A stretch of DNA of 63,056 nucleotides, the filler included, from Sluysia triapertura (lineage: Eukaryota), in NCBI GenBank assembly GCA_046118255.1. It is 5 parts of 5 records of this genome, joined end to end, with 100 filler letters (N's around TTAATTAATTAA, not from the genome) between each part and the next. Parts side by side here need not be neighbours in the genome. Positions count along the whole stretch, not along the records: positions 1 to 14,174 come from JBJNIA010004335.1; 4 more parts are not named here. One strand, given 5' to 3'. This document shows positions 3,530 to 47,872 of the stretch, in pieces. The first letter of the stretch is position 1, and each line of letters begins with the position of its first letter. The translations under genes and the position numbers were made by a program. The notes beneath the pieces are model-generated. The model worked only from the letters and a program-made list of their open reading frames with translations, ran no database searches and was not told where the DNA came from.

Positions 3530-4130
3530 TTAAGGCAATTTCAAGTATCGAAAATCAAACTTAGTTTAATCCTAAGAATGTATTATCCTATAACGTTAAA
3601 AATAGAATTTACATTAAATAAGCATAAAGATTTAAACTCCAGAAGTACGACTTTTAATAACACAACAAATTTAGGAATTTATACAAAAATTAAGCCTATT
3701 TGGAAAGTAGGTCAAATAGTAACAATACGCAATGGTTATCCGACTTACAAACACAACTTCTACCCAAAATGCTGTCTGACATTAAAAACAAAATCCAAAA
3801 ATACGAAGGAAGTTTCATGTAACACCTTTTCTTAAAGAAATACCTATAAAAGCGACGGTGGAATCCAAAATCATAATTATAATTTATAAATTCTTGCACT
3901 AAGAAACACTTGTATATCCCTTTGAAATTATAAAACAATTCGGAAACCAAAATGAATATGTCTTTAAGTATAAAAATTTATAAAGAATCCACAGTGATAA
4001 TAAGTTAACTGATGGGTTATGCACCTTTATGTATCCAAACAGATCCTGCAGAATGTTAAATTACTGGAAGATTATAAAATATTTAAGAAAAGGCAATTGC
4101 TTTCTATTTCAAAAATATTATAGTAAATGA
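3530..4130 (+). mobile_element. Decayed L2/CR1-type LINE ORF2 3' fragment
   Basis: HVTPFLKE..PIKA..E.KIIIIIYKFLH at ~3816-3900, matching the cleaner copy at 37476-37566; TTNLGIY upstream. Confidence 0.7.
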
Positions 4131-4382: not shown

Positions 4383-5340
4383 TGTGGTGGCCAACTTTTC
4401 ACTATTAACAAATTTTATTAAAATATTTTCTTCTTAATACAACAAAATCATATACACCTTCAAAATCTACAATTTGCATTCAAAAATTCATCACAAGCAT
4501 TTTTACACACAGTTCAATACTAACAACCAAAATCATATCCCATTATCATCACACAAATACCCTTTGAATGTACCAAAATTTAGACTATAATTTATCTGTA
4601 CATTCACTAAACCACAATCCACTCAATGTATCTTTAGGTTACAATCTCCTAATATCCAAACATTATGGCCAATCAGAACATTAACGTATATATAAAAACC
4701 CACATAAAACATTTATATTATTGTAAATACTTAAGTTCATCTTCAGTCAAAAACATTAATTGACATCAAAAAATTCATTTTAAACGTCCTACACAATATT
4801 GTACAGCATTAGAACTAGAATCGCATCTTAAAACATCAACTATATATTTAAAACTAATTTTCATTTAAAGATGTTTAGTTTTAAATAAATTTAAATATGT
4901 TAAGAAGCATTAAAGAATACAAGGAAAGAGTATGTTTTAAGTAATATAAAGACTTTGTGCATTTATAACAATAATAACAATAACCATAACATTGTTATTA
5001 TTATTATTAATATTATTTGTATTTTAATTTTCATTACTTTAATTTTAAATACGTCCAGAAATATTCAAAGAAATTAAAAGAAAGTTCTCGTAAGATGTAA
5101 GGAATTTATGTATTTACAACAATAATAACATAGTTATTATTATTATTATTATTATTATCATTTTTATTCATTTATTATTTCTAACTTCTAATTCTATTTC
5201 GATCACTATCAATGGTTACTATGTACAAATTCTTGTCACCATTGATAGTGGCTTGTCTCTCAATTTCATGCAATGTTGCGCTATTAATATCTGTCCAACC
5301 AGAGTGGTCACGTTTATCATTTCAATACCTCCGGTTGGAG
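4383..5340 (+). mobile_element. Structured promoter cassette, copy B (full length)
   Basis: Starts TGTGGTGGCCAAC (4383). C/A-rich arm; two motif+AAY/RTT hairpin units (~4895-5170); stem 5203-5251; inverted TCCAACCAGAG/CTCCGGTTGGA 5294-5339. Confidence 0.85.
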
Positions 5341-5829: not shown

Positions 5830-7200
5830 TGGAAATGGAAACAATCTGTGATGTAACAGTTGGTTCCGGCTTCAAAGGATCCTGTAATAGCCAATTAGTT
5901 TCATACAATGGTTTTATATTCCTAATTTTATAGTGACATTTGACATTATGATAGTAGGAGATTTATGGGTTCATCATTTACAATATTATTTTGTTACAGA
6001 ATATCATGAACACTGTGTCCGGTTCCTGAAAGTTCAAAACTGTATTTTGGAAATTAGCTTCATCAACTATCTATTCTTGTCTATCCTTACTGATAAGTCA
6101 CTTCTTAAATCCTTTTCCCCAATTTGTTGTATTTGTAATGTAAAAATTTTAGATTCTTATATATATTTCGATATTATAAAATCCATTTCGTTTTTAAATA
6201 GAGATTATTTAAATGTAGTTAATAATTTTGATATCAATAATCAAGTTTATTTTCATAGTAAAAGTTTAAATGACCACAGATTAATAAAACTTAAGCTAAA
6301 TTTATTTTGCATTTCGTAAATGACAGAAGGTTTCATTACTTTGTTATGGTTTCCCAAATGATAACCGTAATCGTTCAAAAATCATCGCGCACTAAATTAC
6401 TATCGTAAAACAATTTTACATCTATTATTGATTATATAAATAACTTCTGTTACTAATGCGGTACTGGTAATTACTTAAGAACTTTAGCTTATTCATTCAT
6501 TATTAAATTAACTTTCATTAAAACTTTGGATTCTTCGATCCTCTCGCTTTTAACTGACCTTTCTTAACAGTTTTCTAGCTTTATTTTATAAGGGATGTAT
6601 TTCCTAATAAGAATAACTAAGTTTGGTTTAATACTCTCGGAATTATATCTGAAATAAGTAACTTATCTACAATTTTGTCAATATCTTTGCTTCTGCAACG
6701 CCTTTCGTAAACCATCTTACTTGATGTTGATTCTATGATATTTAACTCTCTATCTTCATTAACTGAGATTATTATTGGCTCATCTTCACTTAAGTTGTTG
6801 GAATCTGTTATTTATTTATTCACGAATAATTTAGTTTGTTTCTTCATTATTTACTGTACTTGTTTTTCTTTTATCAAATAGGTTTACTTCTTTACATTTT
6901 TCTTTCTTATCCTTAATCCTCTTTTTTGATCATACAAATATTGTCTTCTTGTTTGTCCTATCCTCTCAGAATTTCTTCCAATTTTCTTTATTTTTCTAAT
7001 TATTGTAAATCCTCTCCTATTTCTACGTCCTGGTTAATTGCTTCAACCTATTTTCTCTTTTTTTATTCTTCCTTTTTCTTTAAGAAATTCAGGAAATAAT
7101 CTTATACATATTGAAATACTAAACTTGGTAAAATTAAAACGAAGAATCTGACTTTTTTACTTTATCCGATATATGTTACCTTTAAAAGGTTTGTTGTCAA
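5830..7200 (-). mobile_element. Decayed paralog of the post-Gag region of the LTR element at 9209-12560, including the ubiquitin-like segment
   Basis: Minus strand 6340-6625 reads ..KARKLLRKV..KVLMKVNLIMN..LPV..DVKLFYDSNLVRDD..NDYGY, aligning to KARKLLIKI..KELMKISIIIN..LPV..DVDLYFYDRKLLPNDYINDYGY of ORF 11860-12252. Outer limits approximate. Confidence 0.7.
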
Positions 7201-8345
7201 GTTCAAAAACAAAATCTTTCTGTCCGTTCAGTTTAAATTTTAATTTTTTATAATTTATCTTTTCTTAAAACTTTCCATTTCAGAAAAACATATTTAATTA
7301 CGCCAATACCAAATAAATGATAGAATCATTAAAACCCAAAAAGAGTACAAAATTATACATTAATATACAAGAATAACATTAAAGATATGGAATTAATAAA
7401 AAATATCAATTAAAGTTAGATCAAAAAAGTCATTATCGTCATATGTGAACCATTGTTTTTCTTCTCTTGTCTTCAGTATTAATTCACGGTAAATATTCTC
7501 TTGAGCAGCCATGTCCAACCCAAATTACTCTTCGGGCCAAAATTTAGAAATGTACAAGGCACTGGGTCGCCACTCACCTGAACAAAAAAATTTCAATTGT
7601 AGCGCACACTCCCGCTCAAATGAGATACATACACACAAATTAGCATATATACAGATATACACAAAAATATATAGGTATTTTAGTAAATTACAATAGATAT
7701 TTAATACGAAACTTATTTATTATCGATTATTAAAATTTAAATATTAATTTGTGTGATTTCCTTTTTTTGTTATCGAGCCGCACTTTGGACATGACTGATC
7801 TAGTAAGTCATTTTCTATTAAGGCTGTTTTAATCAATTTTAATTAAACCTTTTAATGCCCCATTTACTGATGGTTAAATAATTTCTCTACTAATTAATAT
7901 TTATAAAATTAAAGACCTTAACAAAGTTTTAATTTTAAATTGTTTTATTTTTATTTCTTTTACTCTAATTGCTGCTTTACTATTAAGAACAATTTGTTAA
8001 TAAAAGTTTAATTACATTAACATTTGTGTTTTGTTATTTAGTTCTTTGTAATCACTTTTTATAATCACTTTTTCAATATGTCGGAGTTGTGACGTGTTAA
8101 AGCATTGTAATTACGATAATATATTAAAAAATGAATTATTTGAATTTTCTGTATAATAAGTTTATTATATTAAGACTCTAACTTTATAGCAATTAAAATA
8201 TATACAGTACGTTGAAGAGTAAGAAAATCGAAAGTTACATTTCTCTTTTTGTTATTTTGTTACAGAATTGCCAACTTTATGTTGTAAGTCCTTTAATTTT
8301 ATTTTGCCGTAAATTAGGAGTTAAGAAACCCACAGCATCATATTA

Positions 8346-8412: not shown

Positions 8413-9208
8413 GAAATTATTATATTATTATTAAGTAAAATTATTGTTGTAAAGCATAAAAATATCTTTCTGCCCTATAAAGTTGAATCACTTTGTTTTT
8501 ATGAATGTTTGGTCCTATACGTATTTAACTTCTTACTGATTCAACACTAATGCTTTTTATTTATTTATTTCCTATCGAATGTAGTTATTTTCATTAATGA
8601 CAATCAAAGTCATTTAAATAAGTTCTTGTTAGTTGAATATTTATTTGTACATATATTTGTATATTTGTTAGTTGCATATGACTTTACAAAGGTCTTTTTC
8701 AAATGAATTGGAACAAATTTGTGCTGTGGATGAAGTGGTTTCCGTAAAAGAGAACGATTTAAAACACAGAATTAAAGATAAAAGAGTATATAAAGTATTG
8801 AAATCAACACAATTCACAAAAAAATTTTAAGAACAAAAAATTTTTAAACAAAAAATTTTTGAACACAAGATTTGGTTAATATAAACTTTGTTGGATCAAT
8901 CTTTCAAGCCTCTTGGTAATTTTCACAATTTATTGGATGAATAACTATTTATCTATCAACATTTTTAACATTAACTGTACATGTTAGTTTATTTTTTGTT
9001 AAGGCAGATATTATTTAAGAAATATTGAAAAATACAGGTAAATTCATTAACTTATTTTAATTTTCGTGATCTTGTAATAGATCAATGCAAAATCTTTTTA
9101 AAAATTTCAGTGACATTTGAATTACATTTGGTAATTCTAGAAAAATCTTTATCATTATTATTTTATTATTATATTTTGTACATATAATAAACCTTCCTAA
9201 AAGAAACG

Positions 9209-9495
9209 TGTTGAGTTATGATATAACAGAAAAATAAAATAGTCCTTAATTAAAAAATAGAATAAAGAATCCTTATTATAGGATCCATGCAAAATCACTC
9301 TTAGATTAATAGGATAAGTTAAAATAATATTAACAAAGTTACCTCCAGGTTTTTAGTTAGGAAGTTGATTGAAGTTTTGAGATTTTAAAACACCTTTTCT
9401 TTACGTAAAAATCCAACGGCTGGTCCTCGCTGGTGAACTCACGATATTTTAAATAAACTTTATTCTATACGCTTGCTTCTCACATATAGAATAAA
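9209..9495 (+). mobile_element. Putative 5' LTR (~285 bp)
   Basis: Begins TGTTG; AATAAA at ~9452; directly followed by a PBS. Core AAAAATCCAACGG..TGGTGAACTCAC..ACTTTATTCTA recurs in the inverted copy at 47582-47872. Confidence 0.65.
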
Positions 9496-9496
9496 C

Positions 9497-9514
9497 TGGT
9501 GCCCAGAGTGAGGA
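9497..9514 (+). promoter_or_regulatory. Primer binding site, probably elongator tRNA-Met
   Basis: TGGTGCCCAGAGTGAGGA. Its reverse complement CCTCACTCTGGGCACCA resembles the 3' end of animal elongator tRNA-Met (..CCTCAC....GGCACCA). Lies between LTR and gag. Confidence 0.65.
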
Positions 9515-9871
9515 CCAGTACTTGCAGTAATATGTAAATAAGATATAAAATTTTGATTAAGAAGAAGCTTCTTTTTGAAGAATTTAACAAGATTTTTACG
9601 AAGAATTAAGAGGATTTTGAATTAAGAAGTATCATTATTGAATAATTAAGCACTCTTTGAAGAATATTATTAAGAATTTAAGAAGAATTATTGAATAATT
9701 TGCGAATTAAGTATTTTTGAATAATTATATTAAGATTTCACTAAGAATAAAATAAATTTAAGTAAAATCATAACTTCCTAAGTTAATTATTGACAGATTT
9801 AGTAAACTTTAAGAAAAATAGATAAGCAATTAGTACTTTCAGAATAATAAAGATCAAATTTAAGGAACTAC

Positions 9872-12560
9872 ATGGCTTTACCTAATGAATTTAAAGATTA
9901 TATGGCACAATTAACCAGAGAAATGCGTCCAATAATATCTTTACCCGAAATGAAAAAATTTGACGGTGCAGGGGAAGATCTCTGCGATTTCTTATTTGAA
10001 TACGAAAGTATAGCAGAAGCTAACGACTGGAATGAAGCCGAGAAAATAAAACGGATCCAAAATTACCTAAGTGGAGTTGCTATCCAGACTTATAAGGAAA
10101 TAAGTGATAATAATAAGCAAACTCAGAATGAATTTCTTAATGCATGTACAGAAGAAATAGCCCTTGATGATATGGGTAAATATTAGACACAAAAGATTAA
10201 TACTAGAATACAAAAACCTAATGAATCCGTATATAAATATGCTCGCGCTCTTAAAAGCCTTGTTGCTGGAGCAAAAATTCCAGAAGTTAATAGAGAATTA
10301 ATATTAAAAGATAAATTAAAAACTGGATTACGCCATGAATTAATAACTTATGTTAATTTAATATATGGAAAACATTTTAAGGAAGTAATTAAAATTTTAA
10401 GGAGCATTGAACGCTCAATTATGCAAAAAAAAATAAGAATAAAATTGATTATGTAAGTGACAATGAAGAAAAAGGAGATAATAGTCCAAAATTAACAAGA
10501 AATAATTATAATGATTGATCTAATTATGAAGAATATAATGATAATAACTATAGTCAGGAACGACGTAATAGCCCACATAGAGGCAATAATAATTCAAATA
10601 ATTATAGAAGCAATAATAACTCAAATAATTATAGAGGTAATGATAATTATAGAAATAATTTAGAGGTAATTCAAGTAATTATAGAAGAAATAGTTCAAAC
10701 ATCACAGGGGTAATTCAAATAATTTTTGAAGAAATAATAATAGAGGATTCCAGAATAATAGAGAAAGCAATTATGGTGCTTCTATAAACAAAGACTGGCA
10801 CCGAGAAGGCCACTAAGTTCTAGTTTTAATAGGAATAGGAGTAAAAGCCCAACAAGATATGATAATAATAATAATCTTTGATAACTGTAATAAAAAAAGG
10901 ACATTATGCAAGAGATTGTAGGAAATTAAGGCAAAGTGTATTCACTCAGAATTTTAATAAGGTAAGGGGACATTACCAATGTCCAAATAGGAAAGTAAGG
11001 TTTAATGATAATAATAATAATAACAATAAGAAAGGACAAGTTAATTGTAATTATAAAAGCCAAAAGATTATGAATATAAAGATGAAGAAATAGAATCAGA
11101 AGACAATCAAGAAGAGCAGAAACAAGTAGTGATGAAGAAGATGACAAATACCTTAAGTTAATTTCAGGCGAAGAAAAGAATGCAATGCTACGAGAATTCT
11201 ATATTACTGGATTGGATTGTGACAAAAATAGATTTAAGAACAAACAAGAAAAAGAAATTTTTGAGTTATATGTACGACAGGTATTTAGAATTTCAAAAAG
11301 ATAAACAAAGAAGAGAACTAAGAGAAAAAGAAAATAGATTAACCATTCAACCAATTCAGGTTAGAATTCGAGAATTATTAGAACAACCTTCAGAAGAGAG
11401 TATTGAACAAATAAGAGATAAAAAAAGTAATATCAAGTGAAGATAAAAAAAAGAATTCAAGAATTATTGACAAATGGTAAGGAAAGACGAAGCAAGAATT
11501 AAATAAGCCAGTTGATAAAGAAATAGAAAGTAATGATGAAATAAAAGAATCAAGTATAGAATCAAGTTCAACGAAAGAAGAAATAAAATCAACAAAACAA
11601 CTCAGAATTAAGTGATGATCAAGAAGTGGAAAATGTCATTAATAAAGAAACAGATGATGTAGAAATGGAAATAGATGAAGATGCCTATTACAGTGCCACA
11701 GAAGAAATAGAAACAGGAGAGATGAAATCAATAAAAATATAGCTGCTAATGATAAAATAAATACCCAGAAACTAAAATTAAAGAAGTTAATCAAAAAGTT
11801 GAAGAATTTTTATCAAATATGACACATGTCAAAGACTTAAATGAAAGTTTAATGATTTATTGAATTCAGAATTAAATTTACAGAATGGATATGATATAAA
11901 ATTAGTATTAACTATTTTAAGTAAAGAAGACAGTTTATATAAGACTAAGGCAAGAAAATTATTAATAAAAATAGGACAAAAAGAAAGAAAAGATAAACCT
12001 AAGGAATTAATGAAAATAAGTATAATTATTAATAATGCTCTGAATACTACTATGGAACTCCCAGTTACTTCAATTGCTAAAGATATTATAGAATTACTCA
12101 AGTCAAATAACCCTGATATTACTGATGTTGATTTGTATTTTTATGATAGAAAATTGTTACCTAATGATTATATAAATGATTACGGGTATTCATCAATGAA
12201 TGGAAACCATGAGGAAGCATCAATGACTTCCGCAGTTATAATGGCGTACTAAGCCTTCCGATGATTTGAGAAAATTAGATGAATTTAGATGTTGATTTAG
12301 ACAGAATCCCACGTTCACTACTGCGAGAATTAATGGGAGATAATTACAATAAAAATAATAATAAAGTTATAGATAACCATAATGAAAGCAAGATTATAGA
12401 TATTACTAATGATAATGACGATTACACTGAAGATAAACCCGATTATATAATAGATTTAAATAAAAATCCGGTACAAATTTTTACAATTACAATGATACAA
12501 AATTAATCAATAGATCGCACACAATATCGATTTTATTCTGTCATCATAATATAAATCATA
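9872..12560 (+). pseudogene. gag: Ty3/Gypsy-like gag polyprotein pseudogene (capsid, N/R-rich linker, CCHC knuckle, acidic region, ubiquitin-like segment); no pol seen
   Basis: KFDGAGEDLCDFLFEYE..A..NDW.EAEKI..YLSG.A; read through TAG 10184-10186 to QKPNESVYKYARALKSL (Gag MHR-like); degenerate NCNKKGHYARDC knuckle ~10880-10920; many stops and frameshifts. Confidence 0.8.
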
Positions 12561-13051
12561 ATCATAACAATCCCATTTTTGACGGATCAGAGTAGTTACT
12601 GTAATACGAAAAGTGACAACACTAAAACACTAGTAATGATAGTGAGTAGAATATCTGTTAAATTAAAATTTCTTAATACTAAAGAGTTCTGAACATCTGT
12701 TGGAAATAATAGTAATTATATCTTATTAAGTTTAATATAAAAATAGTTAATAACATAAAATGTATGTGTGTAAAAGTAAGTAGACAAAGACAATGAATAA
12801 TTAAATGTGTTGTTATATTTTTTGTATGGGAGCTTGGAAAATTCCTTATTATCTTTGAATCACACCATACAATAATTTATATTTTTCGAATTTTATTTAA
12901 CAAACCCTACCAAAATCTAATATAATTAGAAACTTAAATAAACCGTAAAATTTAACCCTGAATCTAAAATTAGTAAACGTTGGCTTATTATTATAATTTT
13001 AATTTATAGATAGTATTTTAATAACATTTTTAGTGTAATAATAAATATACT

Positions 13052-13460
13052 TTGACAGTAGCAGTACAACACACTACAAGTATGTTCCAAAACCGATAGG
13101 GGAATATAATTATGTTACTGAAATATCAAAAAACATACAATATGAAGTTAGAGTTAATAATTAAATGTTTAATAATGTAGATTTTTGACAAAAATTACTT
13201 ACCCAACAAAGTCAGGATCACTATCTGGTGCATCTGGATCATCAACCTAATAAAATTAAATTTCATATATTCATTAAAATTACATCATCGCATAAACTGA
13301 AGTCAAATAATTTCGTAGATTCCATTTTCGGCTTAAAAAATATACTTAAATAAATCAATAAAAAAATTCTACCTCTTGTATTTCATTTCTTTTATTTATT
13401 GAAACTAAGTAATTATCTTTTATATCTTTCCATGCATTCTTATAATTATCGATTATTTCT
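13052..13460 (-). CDS. Short-exon spliced gene fragment, unknown function (possibly pseudogene)
   Basis: Four exons with short GT-AG introns join in frame: IIDNYKNAWKDIKDNYLVSINKRNEIQE|PKMESTKLFDFSLCDD|VDDPDAPDSDPDFVG|NIIIFPYRFWNILVVCCTATVK. An upstream hydrophobic segment (~13500-13600) contains stops. Confidence 0.5.
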
Positions 13461-14099
13461 AAATATAAATTGTTTAATAATTAAATTTTAATTACTTAGT
13501 TATTTTTGATTGTTATTAAATGTTAAGTGCAATGAAATTTGAATAATGATAATAATAATAAATAATGCTTATACAAAAAACATATCTACTACAGCATATC
13601 AATCATTCGAATAATATGTACTAATCTAATGCAACACGTTTATTATGTTAAGTTAATATCAACCAAGCCAAACTCGCATCTTTTTCTTCTTAAAGGTTAG
13701 TAGTGTCACTAATGTTGTTACTTTGACTTTGAATTTTTTATTTTAATAATTAAAATATCTAACTAATTAGTACAATACCTAACAAAACCATTATGTTTTA
13801 TATCTTTAAGCTGATGTCCTCACATAGGCTTCAAATACAGCAACTCTTAAATTAATAATAACTGTGTATCATCTTTATCTGTCAAGGTGCTATTATCATT
13901 GTGTCGATTCTTTAATAGTGATGCCACAATAAATTGACCAAAAAATGAATAGAAATGGAAATTGTCGTTCAATGTTTCGAACTTGTATTTTATCATTAAT
14001 TGACAAGCATTTATTTTTTAGCACACAATTCGCATTTGTCGTAATATTTTTAGTTCACTAATTTTTTTACAGTGACGCAGTAATTAATTTTAGTATCAC

Positions 14100-14879: not shown

Positions 14880-16012
14880 TGTGGTGGTCAACCTTCACTA
14901 TTATTAAAATCTATAAAAAAAATAACCTTCTAACACTCTAATATTCACATTTATCTCCTCCACACTCGCTAAAACAGTTCATCTGCCAAAATCAAGTCAT
15001 ATCCACAATCTCGTAACATACAAACCACACTCACACCCAATACCACCAATTTACATCAACAAATCCACCATAAATATGTTACTCGACATTCGTAACAATC
15101 AAACTTTTAACCACATTCGAAATTATCCACTCGACACTTTCGAATCAATTACAACATTTTAAATTAATCATTTGTTATCATATAATCCCTAACAGCACAA
15201 AACATAATACCACTTAAAAACAGCAAGAGAACAAATCACATTAGCAACACTTAACTTTCGAATATACCAAGAGTGGACTATAACTTATCTTTTTCACATT
15301 CACTAAACTACACCCTTCTCATTGTATCTTTTGTTCACAATCTTCCAATGTTCAAATGTCGCTTTCAGTCAAAAACATTAGTCATCATCTAGAAATTCAC
15401 TCTAACGTTCTACATTTTACTGCATAACAATGTAAAACGTCAATTATATACTAAAAACACATTCAAAACAACCTTTACGTAAAGATATTTAGTTTAAATA
15501 CATTTAAATTTATTAAAATATGTTTAGAAATCTAAAGTATTTAAAACAAGAATTCAAAAGTTTATGCAGTTCAATAACAACAATAACTATAACATCATTC
15601 CTCTTGTTATTGCACTCAATTCAATTGTTTTTAATTTTAACTCAAAATATGTAAGAAATTTAAAGAAAAATAAATAAAGATCATGAAAGCTTAGCAAGAA
15701 TTTATGCTTTTTTAACTTTTCAAAATAATAATAATAATAACAACAGTGTCCTTGTTATTAATATTATTATTAACAATTCATCATTATCATTTCTTAATTA
15801 AAATTTTGACGAACAAAATCGGCTGTGTTACTGCCATCATCACAATGACATATTTGTTTTACATTAACAATTTTTCTGTCATTGGTGATGAGGGTAGTCA
15901 TCACAGTTGATTGCTTCAACACCTAGTTAAAATGTTAAATGATTGCATTGGCTATCCAACCAAATGCGCTTCTATGAAAGTGTATTTGGATCATTTGGTT
16001 GGATGTCCAATC
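14880..16012 (+). mobile_element. Structured promoter cassette, copy C (full length)
   Basis: Starts TGTGGTGGTCAAC. C/A-rich arm; two TATGT.AGAA..TTTATGC+hairpin units (~15517-15780); stem 15823-15906; inverted ATCCAACCAAATG/CATTTGGTTGGAT 15954-16004 with outer ATTGG/CCAAT. Confidence 0.88.
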
Positions 16013-16127
16013 AGCAAGAGAAATGATAAAACATCAAAATTTTTAATCAAAAATTGTACACAATTTAATTGTTACAAAAGTTATAAAAAATTTAAAAGTT
16101 GGAGGAATATTAAAAAAGAATCAATTT

Positions 16128-17454
16128 ATGTCGAACCAAATGAATAAAGAATTACAGTGTAACTCTAAGCTTAATTTTGAAATCGAATTCATGGCATCAT
16201 TTCGTCAACTAGTAAATGAAATTAAAAAGTTGTATGGAACACAATATGATTCAGTTTGTCAAATATTTGATATCCTAATGAAGTTTTCTCTAGCATCAAC
16301 CGAGAACACCAGCAAATTATTTAGTTTAATAATTAGTAATTTATATGCAAAATTCAAATAGAACGATATTATTTAATTCGCGTACGCAATTCAGATTACA
16401 TAGTTCCAGTTTTAGAATGGATAAAAGTTTTCAATCATTGGATCCAATGTATACATATAGTAAGCGATTATTATTTTTTAATGAACTATTTCAGTCCCTA
16501 ATAGCGAACGTTTTAACAAGATATATTATATTTACTCATTTTACTTTTAGAATATGTTTAAAGAGAAAAATTAATACTACATTAAGTCAAATGAATAATA
16601 TGAATGAATCTATGATTCTCTTAATTGATTTTCTGAAAGGCTATGGTCGTATTAATGAGAGTATCGCCATTTTATTTAATATGTTGATGACTGCTTATAG
16701 TGGAGATAATTTAAAATTTGTAGCACAAGATAATGTTCTACTATATGTTACAGTTTTATTCAGCTATTTTACATCTTTTCATAATGATCCAACAATAACG
16801 TTTTGTGATCATTTACCTTATTTTGTGTTAAATACAAAAAAAGAAATAAATGTTCATCATGTTATGAGTTATCCATTTTATCAATGATAACATGACTTTT
16901 GATTTTATACTTACATTAATTGATCGAATTTTCAGAGATGTTCTCAAGTTACTAGATTTATCAAATGTTTTAAATTATAAAATAAACATCGTCTATAAAA
17001 TGTCAAATAAGGATAAATTGAATAAAATTGCTGATTATGATAATGTTATCAGTGATGGTTTTACAAACGTTTGTATGAGTATTTGAAGATGCGAATATTG
17101 TATGAATTGTATAATATTGATACAAAACTTATGCGAAAATTATCCAAGCTCGATACAACAGATGCTTTTACTCTATTAGAAAGTTATTTATTGCAAAATA
17201 ATGTCCAAATAAATGCTAATAAAAGTAATTGCACAGATCGTTTATGGTTTCGAGACCAAAATATAATGGCATGGACTATACAAGTCTTACAGCATCCTCA
17301 TAATGTAATTATTTCTTTTCTTTTCTTTGTCTATAATTTAAACCTTCATTTTAATTTAGATGATGAATCTTGGGCTAAGTCGAATGACATTCGTAAGAAT
17401 ATAACAACGAAATTTAAACTTTGTGTTATAACAAAAAATAAAAAACTATTGTAG
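16128..17454 (+). pseudogene. Frameshifted ~440-aa cargo gene of unknown function downstream of cassette C
   Basis: Four abutting or overlapping + ORFs (16128-16361, 16345-16887, 16892-17086, 17071-17454). ATG ~115 nt after the last CCAAT. Confidence 0.6.
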
Positions 17455-27212: not shown

Positions 27213-29516
27213 ATGAGTACAATTAGAAGTTAAAAAATTATCCAAATTTACAGTTACAATTTGAAGTTTAAAAATTTAGTAGATACTGGTGAAATTTCCA
27301 AATTCAATCTAAGTGGTGATACATTATTAAAGCTTTAATGTTATCATTTAATTGTCATACAAATTATATTTTAAAGAATTTTAATACTAATTTGTTTCAT
27401 GGAATGTTTGATAATGCTAAACAATTACGGCTTCCGAATTCAATTTTAGTAGATTCACAAAAAGTTGTTATTGATATATTTAGTGAACGAGTTATGAGTA
27501 TTGGAGAAAGTATACGTCTTGCTAAACAGGTATCAGAAACATGTTACATAAATAGTTCACCAAAAGATCCTTTTCAATTGTATAATGTTAATGTGCATGA
27601 AAATTTATCATTATTCAATTATGAGGCAAAGCATATATCTGAAATTACAGTTCATGTTATAAATGAAAAGTGTACTAATATATTTCCTTATCAATTAGAT
27701 AAAATCATTTATTGTTTTGTGGATTCGGATAATGTTTTCAAGCAAGGGTATTACGATCCAGAATATATATTTATAATGAAACGATTATCTTACGAAAGTG
27801 ATGAATTGAACTGTTTTAGAATGGCTAACAAGTTAGATGAGGCAAAAGAGAATTTCATGGATGAACAAAGTTCAGAACCTCATAACTTACCTGCAAATTA
27901 TTTGGTGATAATATTGGCTGTGTCGACACGGATACAACAAGATTCAAGTGATTATGGACATCATAGAAAAGTTATGATGATTTCATATTATAGCGTAAGA
28001 GGATCTACATTTTTGAATTTTAGAACCAATCCATTCAAAGAAACTGTGAGTGTAACAAATCAAGCGATTTTGGAATTCATAACGAACAGAAAGTTATCAA
28101 TTATTACTTGGCATATACAAAGAACATCTATAAGTGTACAATTATCTTATTATCAGTCAAAGGCAAAATGTCCTCACTTCAAATTGTTACCTTGTGTAGT
28201 CAGTGATCAATATTCTTTCTTACAAAATATAATGAGAAATGTGGTATTATCAAACGTGAAAGATACTAAAATAAAAGAACGAAACTCCACGTGGACAATT
28301 CCGTTTGATACCTCAAGGATGTTTACATTCCAGTTAAATGTTAGTGTTAAATTTTATCATTTTTCCAGTGATCAAAAATATGTCATCAATAGACCTCTTT
28401 TTCTTATTCCCGTCGATGAATATTTTAAAAGCTTTGAAGGTGTTATTCCTACCACGACACATACGTTCGAATACAGTCATATAATGGATACAGTTTGGAT
28501 ATCACGACACGGGACGGCCAAATATAGAATCTACAAAGAAGCTGAGTGTAAATAAAAATTTATTCTATATAATAGATTTTCATTGTTCTTATTTAGTTAA
28601 TGTTACCTTTATTATAATTTTTTTGATGAATAACAATAATTTGAAAGTTAGAGATGAATTTATAAATGATTATTGTACAAAAGTTCTTAAGTTGAAGAAA
28701 CAAACATACGTTGATCGTTATACCAATAATAATAATATTCATGATCAAGATTTGAATACAACGCTGATCTTAATTTTAAATGATACCTTTAATCAAAAGT
28801 ATAATGAAGGAACTTTAAAAATGCTAAGCCTAATGTCAGAACGACATGAAACCAATTCTGCATATGCATACTTAGTTTTCAAACCACTTATATATACTTG
28901 CTACAATACTAAAATAAAAACGACGCCCTCAACCTTAAGTCTATCTTATTCTTACGAACACACTACACTACCCCCCAAATACGAAATGTGTTACAATAAT
29001 AACGAACAGCTTGAAATTGTGGCAAAATTAAAGTATGCTTATCAAAATGAACTTTTTTCTGTGATAATAGGGGATTAGATTTTATTATTGGTGTTATTCC
29101 ATTCATCATAGAAATGATATCACGTGGATCTTCTATAATTTTATCGGCCAGTTCAGAGCCTGCAATTAATGATATAACTCATTCTGAAATGGTTATACTA
29201 GTCAAATAATTATCCACCCAGTCACAAATTTTAGAAAATGCTCTCAAGACTAATAAGTTAATACTAGTTCCTAATGGACAAATGTCTTGATTTGAGATTT
29301 ATTTCAAGAAGGCTAAATTCGGTTTGTCAATATACCAGAGTTGATTTGGTACTAATTCAAGGCATAGCCCGTGCTATTCATACTAATCTAAACGCACGAT
29401 TTAAGGGTGATTCATTAAAATTAGCCAGTATCAAAAAAGCATGGCTAGCAAATAGATTGGGAGGAAGTGTATTTAGTGTGGTCTTTAAATATGAAAACGC
29501 GATATCATTACAATAG
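27213..29516 (+). pseudogene. Chimeric cargo gene: TRMT10/Trm10-like SPOUT fragment + unknown middle + PANK4/DUF89 phosphatase C-terminus
   Basis: KVVIDIFSERVMSIGESIRLAKQVSETCYINSSPKDPFQLY..IFPYQLDKIIYCFVDSDNV resembles Trm10. Intron 28548-28596 joins ORF 27338 to ORF 28623 in frame. From ~29054: FFCDNRGLDFIIGVIPF..RG..PAINDITHSE..CLDL..DLVLIQGIARAIHTN..SLKLASIKKAWLANRLGGSVFSVVFKYE, matching the PANK4 C-terminus. Frameshifts near 29055 and 29280; stop at 29207. Confidence 0.8.
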
Positions 29517-31260: not shown

Positions 31261-31368
31261 GATAACTTCAAAAACTTTCGAGCATATAATTTTGAAGATC
31301 AGCATAACGCGATTAGTAATCGTAGAAATGACGATTTCCAAAATAACAATCTCGAACATTACAGTGGA

Positions 31369-31539
31369 GAAGTCAATAATGCCGAAGTCAATAATGTCGA
31401 AGTCAATAATGCCGAAGTCAATAATGTCGAAGTCAATAATGCCGAAGTCAATAATGTCGAGGTCAATAATGCCGAAGTCAATAATGTCGAAGTCAATAAT
31501 GCCGAAGTCAATAATGCCGAAGTCAATAATGTCGAAGTC
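31369..31539 (+). repeat. 15-bp minisatellite GAAGTCAATAATGYC, ~11 copies ((A/V)EVNN)
   Basis: Direct tandem units, mostly alternating GCC/GTC. Confidence 0.95.
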
Positions 31540-33898
31540 GAATATTATGATGCTAAAAATGATATCCCTAATGATAACAAAGATAACAGTGTTGGAGATT
31601 ATGTTACACAAACTAAGAAGAAGGAAGATATAAATGATCAAGTTAACAACAATAAAAAACATGATGATTCCTTTTACTGCAACGAAGATAACATCCATGA
31701 ACTCGAACAGTACAAAGTTGATTTTTTTACTGTTTATAAAAATAATATATGTCTGCATGAATTTTATGATGATAAATTAATTGTATTTAATTTTCTTAAT
31801 GATAATAGTGATATTCATAAAAGTAATAAAAATAAATCCATGTCTTTTGAAATGTACACACTATAATATTATGATTTTGTTCATTTAATGATTATAAACG
31901 TGACGACTCTAGATTTAACGATAATGAGCATGAGTATTACATGTTCAACAATCAAAAATTTGTTCGTATAGCTGCCCTGTGTCCAGCTTCTACCGACAAC
32001 AAAGGTATTTGCTTAATGCGTCGAATGTTCTCTCGATACGCTCATTCTGTTCATGAATTGACGATCAGCAAAGAAGGTGAAGCAACTTACAATATACACT
32101 CACAAAGAATTACAGAATTACTAAAGAATATTACAGTTGTCTCTACTACATTTTCTAGCACTATTCTAACGGACAACAAAATCAAGGTAAATAGTTTTAA
32201 CTTTGATATCTTTAATGTTATCTATTGTTTTTATTATCATTTTTTATAGTGAGTGAAACCACAAGAAAAAGGATCATACATGGGAGTGTAATATTAAAAT
32301 TAAAATTAAAATTTTTTGTAAATAAAGTTTTATGGTGTTATTCTCAATCTTTGTCTAGAAAGAATATAATAATCAGTTTAGAATTGAAAATTTTAAATCA
32401 AAATATTTTAATAAAACTTAGTTATATAATTCATAAAAATAATTATAAATTAAATTTAAATTTTAAACACAATCATAACTTAAAAATCATAAACATCATT
32501 AACTTTTCACAACATTCTCTCTATATTTTGTTGTATTAATAAACTGTTAAATTTTGTTGTTGTTTGTTTAAAATAGTTATTTTTTAAAGGCCTTAAGCCT
32601 AGTTTAGTAATTAATAAGTTTAATTTTTCGTTAACTGTTTTAAAATTTCATTTTTCTAATAATTGTTTACAAAGAAAAGAAATAAACAAAAATAATTATA
32701 ATTTGATAATTTTAACCTATAAAAAGCCCTCCCCACAATTCTTTATAACAGCAGCGATAAAAATTATTATTTATAACAATACGAATGACAAATATTAGCC
32801 AGGGGTGACATAATTTATTTAAATACTCATCCGTATTGATACAAAATATAATCAATATAAAATAATTCATTAACCCTTATTCCTCGAAATACTTATTTTA
32901 ATCAATTACTAAAGAATAAGCCTCCATATCACCGTTAACCACAGATGAATCAAGGCAGCGTCTCTACATCTAGAAAGTTTTCTTTGGTTTTCTTAATTCT
33001 TGTCTCTATCGCTTTTCACTTTTAATTTTCTTGTAGAAATGTAATTGCTTATATAGTAGTTTTATGATAATTAGAGAAATTAAAAATCAGTAATTTGTCA
33101 ACTAAATTTAAAGATAAATTTAATGAATAAATAAATTTGTTTCTCACAGTAATTTTTTGCATAACCGTACGCATAATCTTTTGCGTCAACCGTACGTTGC
33201 TCATCAAGTTCAATATTTGAATTAGTTTCTCTGTAAGCATCAATTTGATATACACTTTATTAATACTTAGATATTGGAACATATTTAACTTTAATTTTAA
33301 AGTATAAAAATTAATTAAAATAACTAATTTTTACGTTATCTACGTCGTCTACTTCATCATTAAAATATTAATAAAACTCAATATTATATACTAAATCCAA
33401 TGTTACTATATCATAAGCAAACATTTTATTGACTTATCAAATTAAACAAATTTTAATTAAATTAATTAACTTTAATATTTTAACAAATAAAACATTGTTA
33501 AAGGTTATTTCTTCATATTTCTCATTACTTTGTTTTAATTCAAGTATTTTATATGCTTATTTTACCATTACAATTCATCATAATACTTTATCGATCTTTA
33601 TTTTTCACTAATCCCAATATATAAATCGATTTATTGATTCAAATATATTTGTCTTATTAATTTGAAAGGAATATTTTGAATTGATTTCTTATATATTTTA
33701 TCAGGAAATTTTATATATATATATAAGTCAGTGTCTAAAAATAAATATGTAATATGTGTTCATTTCTAAATGTCTGTATTATTGAAATAAATAAATAAAA
33801 TATGTATGTCTAAAATCAAATGTAATATGTGAGTAGTTTTATAATTTAGTTAAAAATAGTTTTTATTATAAATGACCTAATTACTATTGGTATTATTA

Positions 33899-37319: not shown

Positions 37320-37566
37320 CGTAAACTTTCTGTATTATTAATAAAGAAACAACTAAACTTACTGTTCATTCATTGATAACTAGCATCATAGATTTTAACA
37401 ATAGTTTGTTGTATTCAATTTCAATTAATAATTAATCAATCAGCAAGACTAATTCTCGAAGTGGGAAGAAGATCTCATGTAACACCTTTTCTTAAAGAAT
37501 TACATTGGTTGCCAATAAAAGCAAGAATAGAATTTAAAATTATGACAATAATTTACAAATGCTTAC
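37320..37566 (+). mobile_element. L2/CR1-type LINE ORF2 C-terminal fragment
   Basis: KLTVHSLITSIIDFNNSLLY..NQSARLILEVGRRSHVTPFLKELHWLPIKARIEFKIMTIIYKCL: the L2 HxTPxLxxLHWLPxxxRIxFK signature. Confidence 0.88.
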
Positions 37567-43867: not shown

Positions 43868-45112
43868 TTAAAAATATACCACCATAAAGGTTTTTTCATC
43901 TTCGTCTTGTGGAATATTTCTTTTATTAAAATGCTGAAAAGCAATTTTAGATGTTTTCAAAATTTCGGAAAGTTCTACATTTTCTTCTTTATCGGCACGT
44001 AAGTAATAACTTCGATGCATTTGAATTAATTGAAATTCGAGAATTTTCAAATAATTATCTCTATCTACTTTTGCAATTGAATTACTACTTTTATTATTTT
44101 TATTTTCTTCCATTTCTATATAAATATTTGACAAAAATATATATTTAGGAACTTTAATGTATATGTTTTCATATTTTTCCCAATGAAAATCAGTATCATC
44201 CAAAATGCAAGTCATTGAAATAGGAAATTTTTCCGAAAGACTTTCTAACCAATAATATTTTTTCCATAATCCATCATCATCTTTTTCTAATGAAGAATTA
44301 AAAGCTCTTCCAATGTCTTTTTGACTGTAAATACGACCCTTAAAATATTTTCCTTCTGGGTCAATGAACTTTACAATATAGCTCGCATAAACTCTATCAG
44401 ACATTGTACAAACAATCATCTCAAATGATGGTTCTAATTTTTCAAGAAATTTTCTCAAACCTGGCCTTAATACAGTATAACTTTTCATTTCATGGAAAAA
44501 ACACAAAAAATCTGATTCTTTATTAGTATTCAATTTTTTAATAGAATCGGTGCATATAGTATTAATAATAGTTAAATCTAAATCTATAATTAACAACAAT
44601 TTTCGATTATTTATTAGATCCGATTTAATACATGAATTTTCGTATTCAACAGGATACATTATTTCAAATAAACGAAATATTAAAATAAATAAAATCAAAA
44701 CAAAAATCAAACCATTCTCATGACCTTGAATTGTTCGATTTATAAATTCATTACATGTGCAAATTAAAACTCCAGCATTATTTGAATAGGGATCATTATA
44801 GATTTGATTTGATGCATTGCCTAAACTTTGTGATCGAACTAAATTATCACGCTCCATGACATGAAATGAACGTGAATCACTTCGATTTATTAAACTTATG
44901 TAATTAATATAACTGTTCATATCTGATACTAAATTGTAATAAAGTACTAAAGGTCGTTGATTATAAAATCCATTAATATCTGCAGAGTAATACAATGGAT
45001 TTTTATTAGAATTATCTAATCTATCACTTAATCCCGCACATAGAGAACATCTATAAGGAGTATTATATTCCATAACATGGATGTGACATGATTTGAAAAT
45101 TAGACATTGCTC
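43868..45112 (-). CDS. FCP1: RNA polymerase II CTD phosphatase FCP1/CTDP1-like (HAD family), no BRCT domain in the ORF
   Basis: 401-aa ORF with KLLLIIDLDLTII (DxDxT), LRPGLRKFLE, YFKGRIYS, ILDD, DRDNYLKILE..H..YY. The frame extends upstream to an AG acceptor near 45112 (CHIHVM..CSLC, FCP1-like N-terminal Cys/His motif). Confidence 0.9.
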   Translation of the reverse strand, partial: EQCLIFKSCHIHVMEYNTPYRCSLCAGLSDRLDNSNKNPLYYSADINGFYNQRPLVLYYNLVSDMNSYINYISLINRSDSRSFHVMERDNLVRSQSLGNASNQIYNDPYSNNAGVLICTCNEFINRTIQGHENGLIFVLILFILIFRLFEIMYPVEYENSCIKSDLINNRKLLLIIDLDLTIINTICTDSIKKLNTNKESDFLCFFHEMKSYTVLRPGLRKFLEKLEPSFEMIVCTMSDRVYASYIVKFIDPEGKYFKGRIYSQKDIGRAFNSSLEKDDDGLWKKYYWLESLSEKFPISMTCILDDTDFHWEKYENIYIKVPKYIFLSNIYIEMEENKNNKSSNSIAKVDRDNYLKILEFQLIQMHRSYYLRADKEENVELSEILKTSKIAFQHFNKRNIPQDEDEKTFMVVYF

Positions 45113-45552
45113 TAATATTAAAAAATAGTGTTTACCGTTTACAGTAACAAATATTAAATGTTAATATAGATTATTATGAGATAATTATAATATTTCACAC
45201 TGTAGAAAATAAAGCTAAAAAGCGAAAATTTATTTTATATTGTACTTTAATAGATAAAAAATAATATTTGTTTAACAAACAAATTTTAATGTTTTTTCTT
45301 TTTAAAATTAATAACTAAATAATTACTCATATTTAAAATAGAATATTTATTTTAGTAAACGCTTTTCACTTTGTAAAACAATAAATTAATTGTTTGTTAT
45401 TTTTAAATTTTGTTAGTCGACTTTTTTTAATGATTTAATTACAAAAATGTATATAATTTAATAATAATGTAAAAAAATTAATAAAATAATTTAAAAATCT
45501 AGACCTAATTGTGACAAAAATGAAATTAGCAACATAAAATATTTAAATTATA

Positions 45553-46320: not shown

Positions 46321-46481
46321 TGATATAAATTTGTTGGGTTAAAAAGGCCTAAAGTGGCATTTGGTAAAATTGACTATAATAAAATAAAATTGTTAGACGG
46401 GGCTGATAACTCAGTGGTAGAGCAATCGAACTGCGCAGTGATGGTTCGATTTCCGGTCAGTCCACTTTACGAAGTCTAACA
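46321..46481 (+). mobile_element. tRNA-derived repeat (SINE-like), copy 1
   Basis: A box TAACTCAGTGGTAGAGC, B box GGTTCGATTTCC; core framed by TGTTAGAC/GTCTAACA; conserved upstream flank shared with 53155 and 57326. Confidence 0.8.
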
Positions 46482-47581
46482 CATTTTTGAAGTAAATAAG
46501 TTTTTATTTAATAACTTAATATTTTACAAAATCATTTTCTTTCTTGGAGGTTAGATTTTAATCTATTTATTGTTTCATAAATAATCCATATTTTAAATTA
46601 ACATTTAAAATTAACAATAACTAAAAACTCGATGATTGTTTAAATTTTATTGACACTTCAAAATTTTAATTTATTTACATTTTCATTTTCTATTTATCAT
46701 ACATTGATTTTCACCATTAAGGTTTTTTAATAAAAATTATAACAAATATAAATTTACGAATAAAATTTTTAAATTCAAAAGTAAAAATACTGTCAGTTAT
46801 TTTAGTCACTAATAAAACACAATTTTCAATCATGTAAAATTTAATTGGTTTTTTTGTTAATAGTTTGTGAACTGTTTAACAACTTTAATGCTTATAAATA
46901 AAAATCGATTTTATATTTACCATAATGTTTGGCAATAAACGATATGCTACATTATTGTTTTGTCCTTTTTTTGTATTGTTTTTCTTAATAATAAAAAAAT
47001 TAATTTGAATACAGACAGAAACATTAGTAAGCAAAACTTTTTATAGATTATACATTTTTAAATTAAAAATTATTTTCAATAAAATGATGTATTGTGTAAA
47101 ATTATTTTATAATCAGAATGCATACATTCTGTAGAATTTTTTTGTTAATTTAAACAGTAATTTACATAATTTTATTTAAAGTTATGGACTTTTCAAGTTT
47201 TATTTCCATTATGATAAGCAGTTTATTATTTAGTTTCATTTATGGTGGTTTTATGTATAATGATGGCGAGTTTTTTATGTGTTGGATGTGACGAATATGT
47301 TGAGTATGTTGAATACGTTGATGAATTGATGTTCTTATGCATTAAGTTGATGAATAATGTTTATAATCGAGGAAGTAATTATGTCTGATTGACACTAACT
47401 CCAAGGTATGTATTCATAATCTTTATAGTGATGATCATAGAACAAATAATCATATGGTTCATATATTAGATTAATGTAGTAATATAGAATATTATTAATG
47501 CCATAGAAATGAGAGATTAATGTTTGATTCGAGAATTTAGATATGTGCCTTGGTTTAATATTTAATCTGGAATAATTCTTT

Positions 47582-47872
47582 TGTTAGACTTGTGGGAATA
47601 ATTAGAGATAAAATAGAATAAAGTAGGATTTAAGGTGAGTTCACCAATGTACTAGGTATACCAGTTAGGGCTATCCGTTGGATTTTTTCTATAATTAAAA
47701 GGATTTTCATTAAGGAAAATACCTTAATGTTTGCCTAGGTTTTAAAGAATGCTCTAAAGTTAAGATCTGTGTGTATCTAATTAGTTTTTAAATTTTATAA
47801 GGACAATTAAATCTAGATCTTTAGGTATTTTAGTTATAGTACTGAAAATCGTTTATAATTTCAATTATAACA
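47582..47872 (-). mobile_element. Solo LTR related to 9209-9495
   Basis: TGTTA...TAACA termini on -; shared AAAAATCCAACGG, TGGTGAACTCAC and ACTTTATTCTA blocks; similar length; no clean TSD. Confidence 0.6.

Follow-up and report, generated by a model that had tools for sequence, protein, structure and literature searches.

We identified in Sluysia triapertura the remains of a retroelement that we read, on balance, as Burro-like: a broken, 3'-cut member of a multi-copy family, with Gag, a spacer and a likely ubiquitin/SUMO-like domain. For the segment at 12010..12249 (+), the reading that we favour as the most likely one is a ubiquitin-like domain that lies in a repeated retroelement, behind its Gag. 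The window, by which we mean the whole stretch of DNA that was analysed, is 63,056 nucleotides long, has a G+C content of ~24% throughout and consists of five joined parts of assembly GCA_046118255.1.

The sequence-only reading had placed a ubiquitin-like peptide at 12010 on the plus strand, and this peptide reads exactly from the ATG, with every letter in agreement. It sits within a stop-free frame of 135 aa at 11845-12249 (+), which is closed by a stop at 12250-12252. The proposed end of the domain at 12200 was too short, as the last predicted strand occupies 12229-12246 and the likely domain extends to ~12249. We therefore list a likely ubiquitin/SUMO-like domain of 80 aa at 12010..12249 (+), on the basis of Pfam, the ESM Atlas, alignment, secondary structure, and core and patch positions. 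The in-frame segment preceding it (11845..12009, +), delimited by translation and similarity, is common to a second copy in the window from ~11884 onwards.

The near-gapless likeness to ubiquitin was confirmed. Residues 1-60 of the domain align end to end with ubiquitin 1-61 with one 1-residue gap and 11 identities (BLOSUM45), and identity to ubiquitin is ~18%. With Met1 fixed, the end-to-end score was reached by 15 of 10,000 shuffles with BLOSUM45 and by 12 of 10,000 with BLOSUM62, and the domain ranked as the top-scoring of 3,700 stop-free 60-mers in the window with BLOSUM45 and among the 3 of 3,700 (itself counted) at or above its score with BLOSUM62; these shuffle and rank figures are optimistic, because the end points were picked after the match was known. 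The ubiquitin references came from 121 IMG/VR loci, which gave 117 units, 96 of them distinct, with loci L122-L123 left out; 25 of the 96 entered alignment A3, and Pfam verified the identity as ubiquitin for 2 of the IMG/VR units. A broader collection of ubiquitins, drawn from genome contigs, proved to contain near-canonical ubiquitins only and was left out.

Given the one-gap alignment, hydrophobic residues occupy 14 of 17 ubiquitin core positions, versus 47% overall; the list of core and patch positions is one that we presume from the ubiquitin structure. The same alignment, on which these assignments depend, replaces ubiquitin L8 with Asn, I44 with Tyr and F4 with Ser. An insertion of ~9-11 residues precedes the last strand and is partly retained in the second copy. 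Gly-Gly does not follow the last strand in any frame of either copy.

Local comparisons with ubiquitin were not significant. The Smith-Waterman score was reached by 632 of 5,000 shuffles and the score against a ubiquitin HMM by 419 of 2,000 (1,882 reported), and hhalign gave the pair a probability of 0.2%. Thus, the likeness is a dispersed pattern rather than a strong local match. All three results favour an explanation in which the element has, at this place, a small and conserved spacer domain of alpha/beta type instead of a beta-grasp, and in which the ubiquitin likeness is a chance hydrophobic pattern. We consider this explanation unlikely, since Pfam, the ESM Atlas and the alignment all indicate one clan, which had been named in advance, and since PF11976 is described at a comparable site in gypsy elements in the relevant part of PMC6431247.

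Pfam PF11976 (Rad60-SLD) was the sole family matched by two of four trims of the segment, at E 0.13 and E 0.084. Both matches are weak (12.6 and 13.1 bits, below the curated cut-off of 23.8), such matches are commonplace (8 of 46 translated windows have one at E <= 0.3), and these two carry weight only because the ubiquitin clan was named in advance. As for the other two trims, the 135-residue frame had no Pfam match and the fourth trim gave an unrelated family. In the ESM Atlas, the top three clusters (61-76 aa, 0.92-0.94) carry no family, which suits a spacer domain; the named rows among those listed of 30 are ubiquitin or Rad60-SLD in three of three cases (0.90-0.91). All ten of the best family-bearing matches have a common family or clan, a level of ten same-clan matches that one third of shuffled proteins also reach. 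The matches share 146-154 features, below the 170 typical for true family members, and the two Atlas results count as a single source of evidence.

Prediction of the fold had been proposed as the check on a beta-grasp. From one sequence, AlphaFold (pLDDT 66) placed a strand, a helix, a strand and the last strand where the alignment expects them, with the second strand missing; the predicted strand-helix-strand-strand order coincides with the ubiquitin-aligned positions. When the second copy was included as two additional rows, the model deteriorated (pLDDT 55), again with the second strand missing. The beta-grasp match itself did not appear: four fold searches of these two low-confidence models with Foldseek and VIA-align returned no ubiquitin-like chain and instead gave generic alpha/beta rows, the best being MinE at Z 4.7 and 4.9 (VIA-align). 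PDB sequence searches found designed helical repeats and chance rows, or nothing, and no ubiquitin-like protein. The fold and PDB searches are again what a spacer domain would lead one to expect, but models built from 1 and 3 rows at low confidence test little.

Relatives of the domain were found neither in three word-index protein searches nor among metagenome and viral contigs. HMMER against 1.84 billion representatives gave 1 match, a bacterial HEAT-repeat protein, which we rejected as a repeat artefact because it aligned through six repeated stretches. The fold call is no firmer because no relatives were found; we hold it likely that the 12010-12249 segment has a ubiquitin-like (beta-grasp) fold.

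The domain lies in the remains of an element that runs along the plus strand. At its upstream side, a stretch at 9317..9497 (+), starting with AGTT and ending with AACT, is possibly the 3' part of a 5' LTR with uncertain limits, and contig depth climbs from ~9302, near this putative LTR part. A PBS-like motif beginning with TGG follows at 9497..9514 (+), and it may resemble the complement of the 3' end of elongator tRNA-Met; tRNA genes and Rfam families were not found in the window. The unit had been spoken of as LTR-bounded; no LTR pair was found in the window, in which the copy is cut. Separately, a short diverged repeat links 47613-47702 (-) to 9393-9468 (+), with several exact words in common, including a 12-mer; 2 of 300 shuffles reached the score of a wider alignment. 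The plus-strand member directly precedes the PBS-like motif, and the minus-strand member, which has no PBS after it, may be a related LTR relic.

A Gag capsid region at 9872..10453 (+), with one stop at 10184-10186, was recognised by Pfam: with X at the stop, it matched PNMA at E 2.7e-4 and Retrotrans_gag at E 0.048, both below the curated cut-offs. It is followed at 10875..11090 (+) by remnants of nucleocapsid zinc knuckles, namely one weak CCHC match in Pfam (zf-CCHC, E 0.035-0.041, below cut-off) and at most two more by eye, with no complete CCHC pattern in the knuckle region. A charged spacer at 11086..11844 (+), probably helical or coiled judging by its translations, is interrupted by stops and frameshifts and has no informative Pfam match. 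Behind the domain, a broken Asn/Asp-rich continuation occupies 12253..12470 (+), and contig depth puts the end of the repeated unit at ~12470. A Gag capsid together with a zinc knuckle, one of the features of Ty3/gypsy elements, was found with all scores below cut-off, and the element is likely of the Ty3/gypsy kind.

The domain had been described as embedded in a Gag polyprotein. It does lie downstream of Gag, at ~710 codons from the Gag start; in this copy, however, capsid, knuckles, spacer and domain are scattered across three separate frames with many stops between them. Because of this scatter, a single polyprotein is something that we infer. The decayed frames of this cut copy gave no Pfam match to a protease, RT, MATH, BIR, BCL-2 or env, and neither here nor behind the second copy did such frames match BCL-2, BIR, ankyrin or env. 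The present copy is broken, is 3'-cut ~220 bases past the domain and is unable to make protein.

It is clear that the domain is part of a repeated unit. Three public runs (X1, X2 and X3) contain the stretch, X2 and X3 being filed under other organisms; RNA runs are absent from those listed, an absence that has no bearing on expression. In X1, which may be the source of the window, 8,718 records were placed on 9000-13500, most of them <95% alike. Summed depth in X1, which is not copy number, was 4,322-290,549 in all bins of 9302-12472, 105,566-290,549 over the capsid region and 98,145 over the domain (12020-12170). It dropped from 59,757 (12322-12472) to 246 (12473-12623) and stayed at 27-246 beyond 12473. 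Beyond the unit, a single contig without differences covers 12540-13500 at a depth of 15. X2 and X3 contain the domain with 14-26 differences, and their loose ends lie at 12469. The PBS-like motif, capsid, knuckle remnants, spacer and domain are thus all shown to be covered by many diverged contigs; none of the pieces listed links Gag to the domain in one contig.

A diverged homolog on the minus strand had also been reported, and it is real. At 6310..6650 (-) both the domain and the segment before it occur a second time in broken form, supported by tblastn (E 0.001) and by a score of 89 versus a shuffle maximum of 71 (n=150). The similarity runs from ~11884-12240 in the first copy to 6644-6319 (-) in the second. 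The two domains share 35% identity, by which we rejected a recent duplication, and the second copy contains stop codons, a gap and, near 6380, a frameshift. Pfam detected no Gag upstream and no protease downstream of it; protease-like words seen by eye behind it were discarded, as 21 windows gave no Pfam support. Since Gag is not detectable there, the second copy may be part of another element. It supports conservation of the module, not of Gag in every carrier. The claim of a family feature therefore stands for the domain, which many diverged contigs of the element's family cover, but not for Gag upstream of the second copy.

Upstream of this second copy, a splice-site-like stretch at 7510-7590 (-) consists of a pyrimidine run and CAG, then GTGAGT, and overlaps a TGG motif that is a possible PBS. 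An ATG at 7512 (-) begins a short frame.

The window contains other repeats and coding remnants. One dispersed repeat family has copies at 4742-5193 and 15364-15805, another has three copies at 46322-46484, 53154-53319 and 57323-57497, and both are 64-73% alike. A short frame at 37392-37565, with a 73% copy at 3815-3895, has no Pfam match and by eye resembles the final portion of a reverse transcriptase of the LINE kind. Frameshift-broken runs at 27320-29078 (+) and 15911-17454 (+) hold frames of 411, 197, 184 and 132 aa with no informative Pfam match, and a 15-base coding-like tandem repeat (x13) at 31300-31584 is open in three frames. A 430-codon stop-free frame at 43871-45160 (-) matches a NIF/FCP1-type phosphatase (E 4.8e-20) and has no sign of an intron. 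Pieces resembling UNK CCCH zinc fingers occur at 51440-51724 (+) (E 5.9e-7) and 31875-32246 (+) (E 0.039), and a tropomyosin-like exon at 58538-58963 (+) (E 7.4e-9) is the main sign of an animal host in the window. Together with the phosphatase and the low G+C content, it points to an AT-rich animal.

The closest published counterpart is found in planarians. According to the portions of PMC6431247 that describe them, Burro/GYPSM1 gypsy elements carry a Ubi2/SUMO-like PF11976 domain in a Gag-led polyprotein, in which Gag has two or three CCHC knuckles together with Smc-like and MATH parts, and in which BCL-2, env and Pol come after the Ubi2/SUMO-like domain in one ORF of ~5,000 aa. The same portions describe decayed Burro fragments in Dugesia japonica and a Burro-like ORF1 without MATH in Dugesia tigrina, and name a role of the Burro domain in host ubiquitination as a possibility in the authors' view. 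The novelty that the sequence-only reading implied for a fusion of Gag with a ubiquitin-like domain is therefore lost, as a PF11976 domain behind Gag had already been published for Burro/GYPSM1 (PMC6431247). Judging by literature listings, that source is the sole description found of a ubiquitin/SUMO-like domain behind Gag; the main text of PMC13524379 does not contain "ubiquitin" or "SUMO", and its supplements may bear on flatworm elements.

The present element is like Burro1-4/GYPSM1 of Schmidtea mediterranea and the D. tigrina element in its order of a leading Gag, what are probably CCHC remnants, a probably coiled stretch and then a domain that is weakly matched by PF11976, and like Burro/GYPSM1 it has many copies. 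Unlike Burro, the present copy has no visible MATH, BIR, BCL-2, ankyrin, env, protease or RT. The later Burro-type parts are not visible because this copy ends at ~12470. With MATH, BIR, BCL-2, env, protease and RT missing, it is therefore the layout that carries the kinship with Burro. We judge a Burro-type layout to be somewhat better supported than not, and the element probably adds a further family to the published layout of Gag plus a ubiquitin/SUMO-like domain.

An integral ubiquitin-like domain has precedents among host proteins. Rad60/Esc2-type SUMO-like domains (PF11976) and the UBLs of Ddi1 and Rad23 are integral ubiquitin-like domains, and likewise they have no Gly-Gly, sit within a longer protein and have the beta-grasp that is likely here. 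The present domain differs from them in its ~18% identity to ubiquitin, the insertion before the last strand and the changed L8/I44 patch, and also in its retroelement setting, with no adjoining protease found. The Ddi1 order of a UBL, a helical linker and a retropepsin suggests an alternative, in which the ubiquitin-like domain belongs to a compact gypsy lineage outside Burro, lies immediately ahead of the protease and regulates or targets it. Compactness would fit the short distance from the Gag start to the domain, only ~710 codons with no MATH match between. What the second copy has in common with the first is limited to the domain and the segment before it, with no Gag upstream, so that the module apparently exists in more than one context. 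However, neither copy is followed by a protease (retropepsin) match or a D(T/S)G motif, a search made in decayed frames, where the first copy stops ~220 bases past the domain. The absence of MATH does not separate this alternative from a Burro-type element, because the D. tigrina ORF1 also has none. We consider the Ddi1 order improbable, and keep to the Burro-type layout as the preferred reading.

Host ubiquitin or SUMO as such does not explain the segment. We rejected a host gene for free ubiquitin or SUMO, as the domain has no Gly-Gly, has 18% identity and is located in a repeat. A cleavage signal of the pestivirus type, which requires Gly-Gly, was rejected for the absence of that motif. With no Gly-Gly and a changed L8/I44 patch, the domain would therefore not be conjugated to other proteins as a modifier, and it is unlikely to serve budding through ESCRT. 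Its sequence indicates that the domain, if ubiquitin-like, is an integral domain rather than a modifier.

Budding dependent on ESCRT was among the roles suggested for the domain at the outset: it would mimic ubiquitin on Gag and recruit ESCRT. As far as the relevant section of PMC2958808 describes, foamy virus and EIAV Gag proteins that were engineered as fusions with a ubiquitin devoid of Gly-Gly are released in an ESCRT-dependent manner, and release by the fused ubiquitin requires L8 and I44. That a Gly-Gly-less ubiquitin at the end of Gag can drive release speaks for the idea, and the present domain is like these fusions in having a ubiquitin fold (likely here) at the C-terminal side of Gag without Gly-Gly. 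Burro elements are also described as possessing env (PMC6431247), and PTAP and PPxY are absent from the three decayed frames of 9872-12500, so that a substitute could help. Unlike the fusions, which contain true ubiquitin, the domain is natural, highly diverged and devoid of L8/I44. The replacement of these required residues by Asn and Tyr weakens the budding idea (PMC2958808); in addition, F4 is changed to Ser, env was not found here, and the frames scanned for late motifs are decayed. We therefore regard ESCRT recruitment as very unlikely.

For the favoured reading, a ubiquitin-like domain behind Gag, we propose the following course. Working copies would make Gag with a long C-terminal extension bearing the domain, in one polyprotein. 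The domain would fold as a beta-grasp and either stay joined to Gag or be excised by the element's protease. It could then bind the host in the manner of SUMO-like domains, through a surface other than the I44 patch; candidate partners are E2 enzymes, ligases, SIM proteins and components of the proteasome. Such docking might shield particle proteins from turnover or dampen SUMO- or ubiquitin-dependent defence. A built-in docking surface for the host ubiquitin/SUMO machinery is wholly what we infer, and we put it forward tentatively, as somewhat less than an even prospect. Further still from the evidence, and quite improbable in our estimate, is a helical and SUMO-like module that is mobile between unrelated retroelements of this animal, following Gag in one family and lacking Gag in another. 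Such a module would mimic SUMO and so jam SUMO-dependent piRNA silencing, or else give a Ddi1-style handle on the protease of the element.

The gain from this copy is modest, because its layout was known, it is defunct and truncated, and its ubiquitin-like fold is likely rather than proven. Published cases of Gag followed by a ubiquitin/SUMO-like domain are nonetheless rare. A further, much-repeated family means more sources for an 80-residue piece that can be folded and assayed. If the domain binds proteins of the SUMO pathway, this would connect retroelements with the step of piRNA silencing at which SUMO acts, a step treated in part of bioRxiv 10.1101/533091. Were the module indeed mobile, it would represent a transposon-encoded counter-defence made from the ubiquitin fold.
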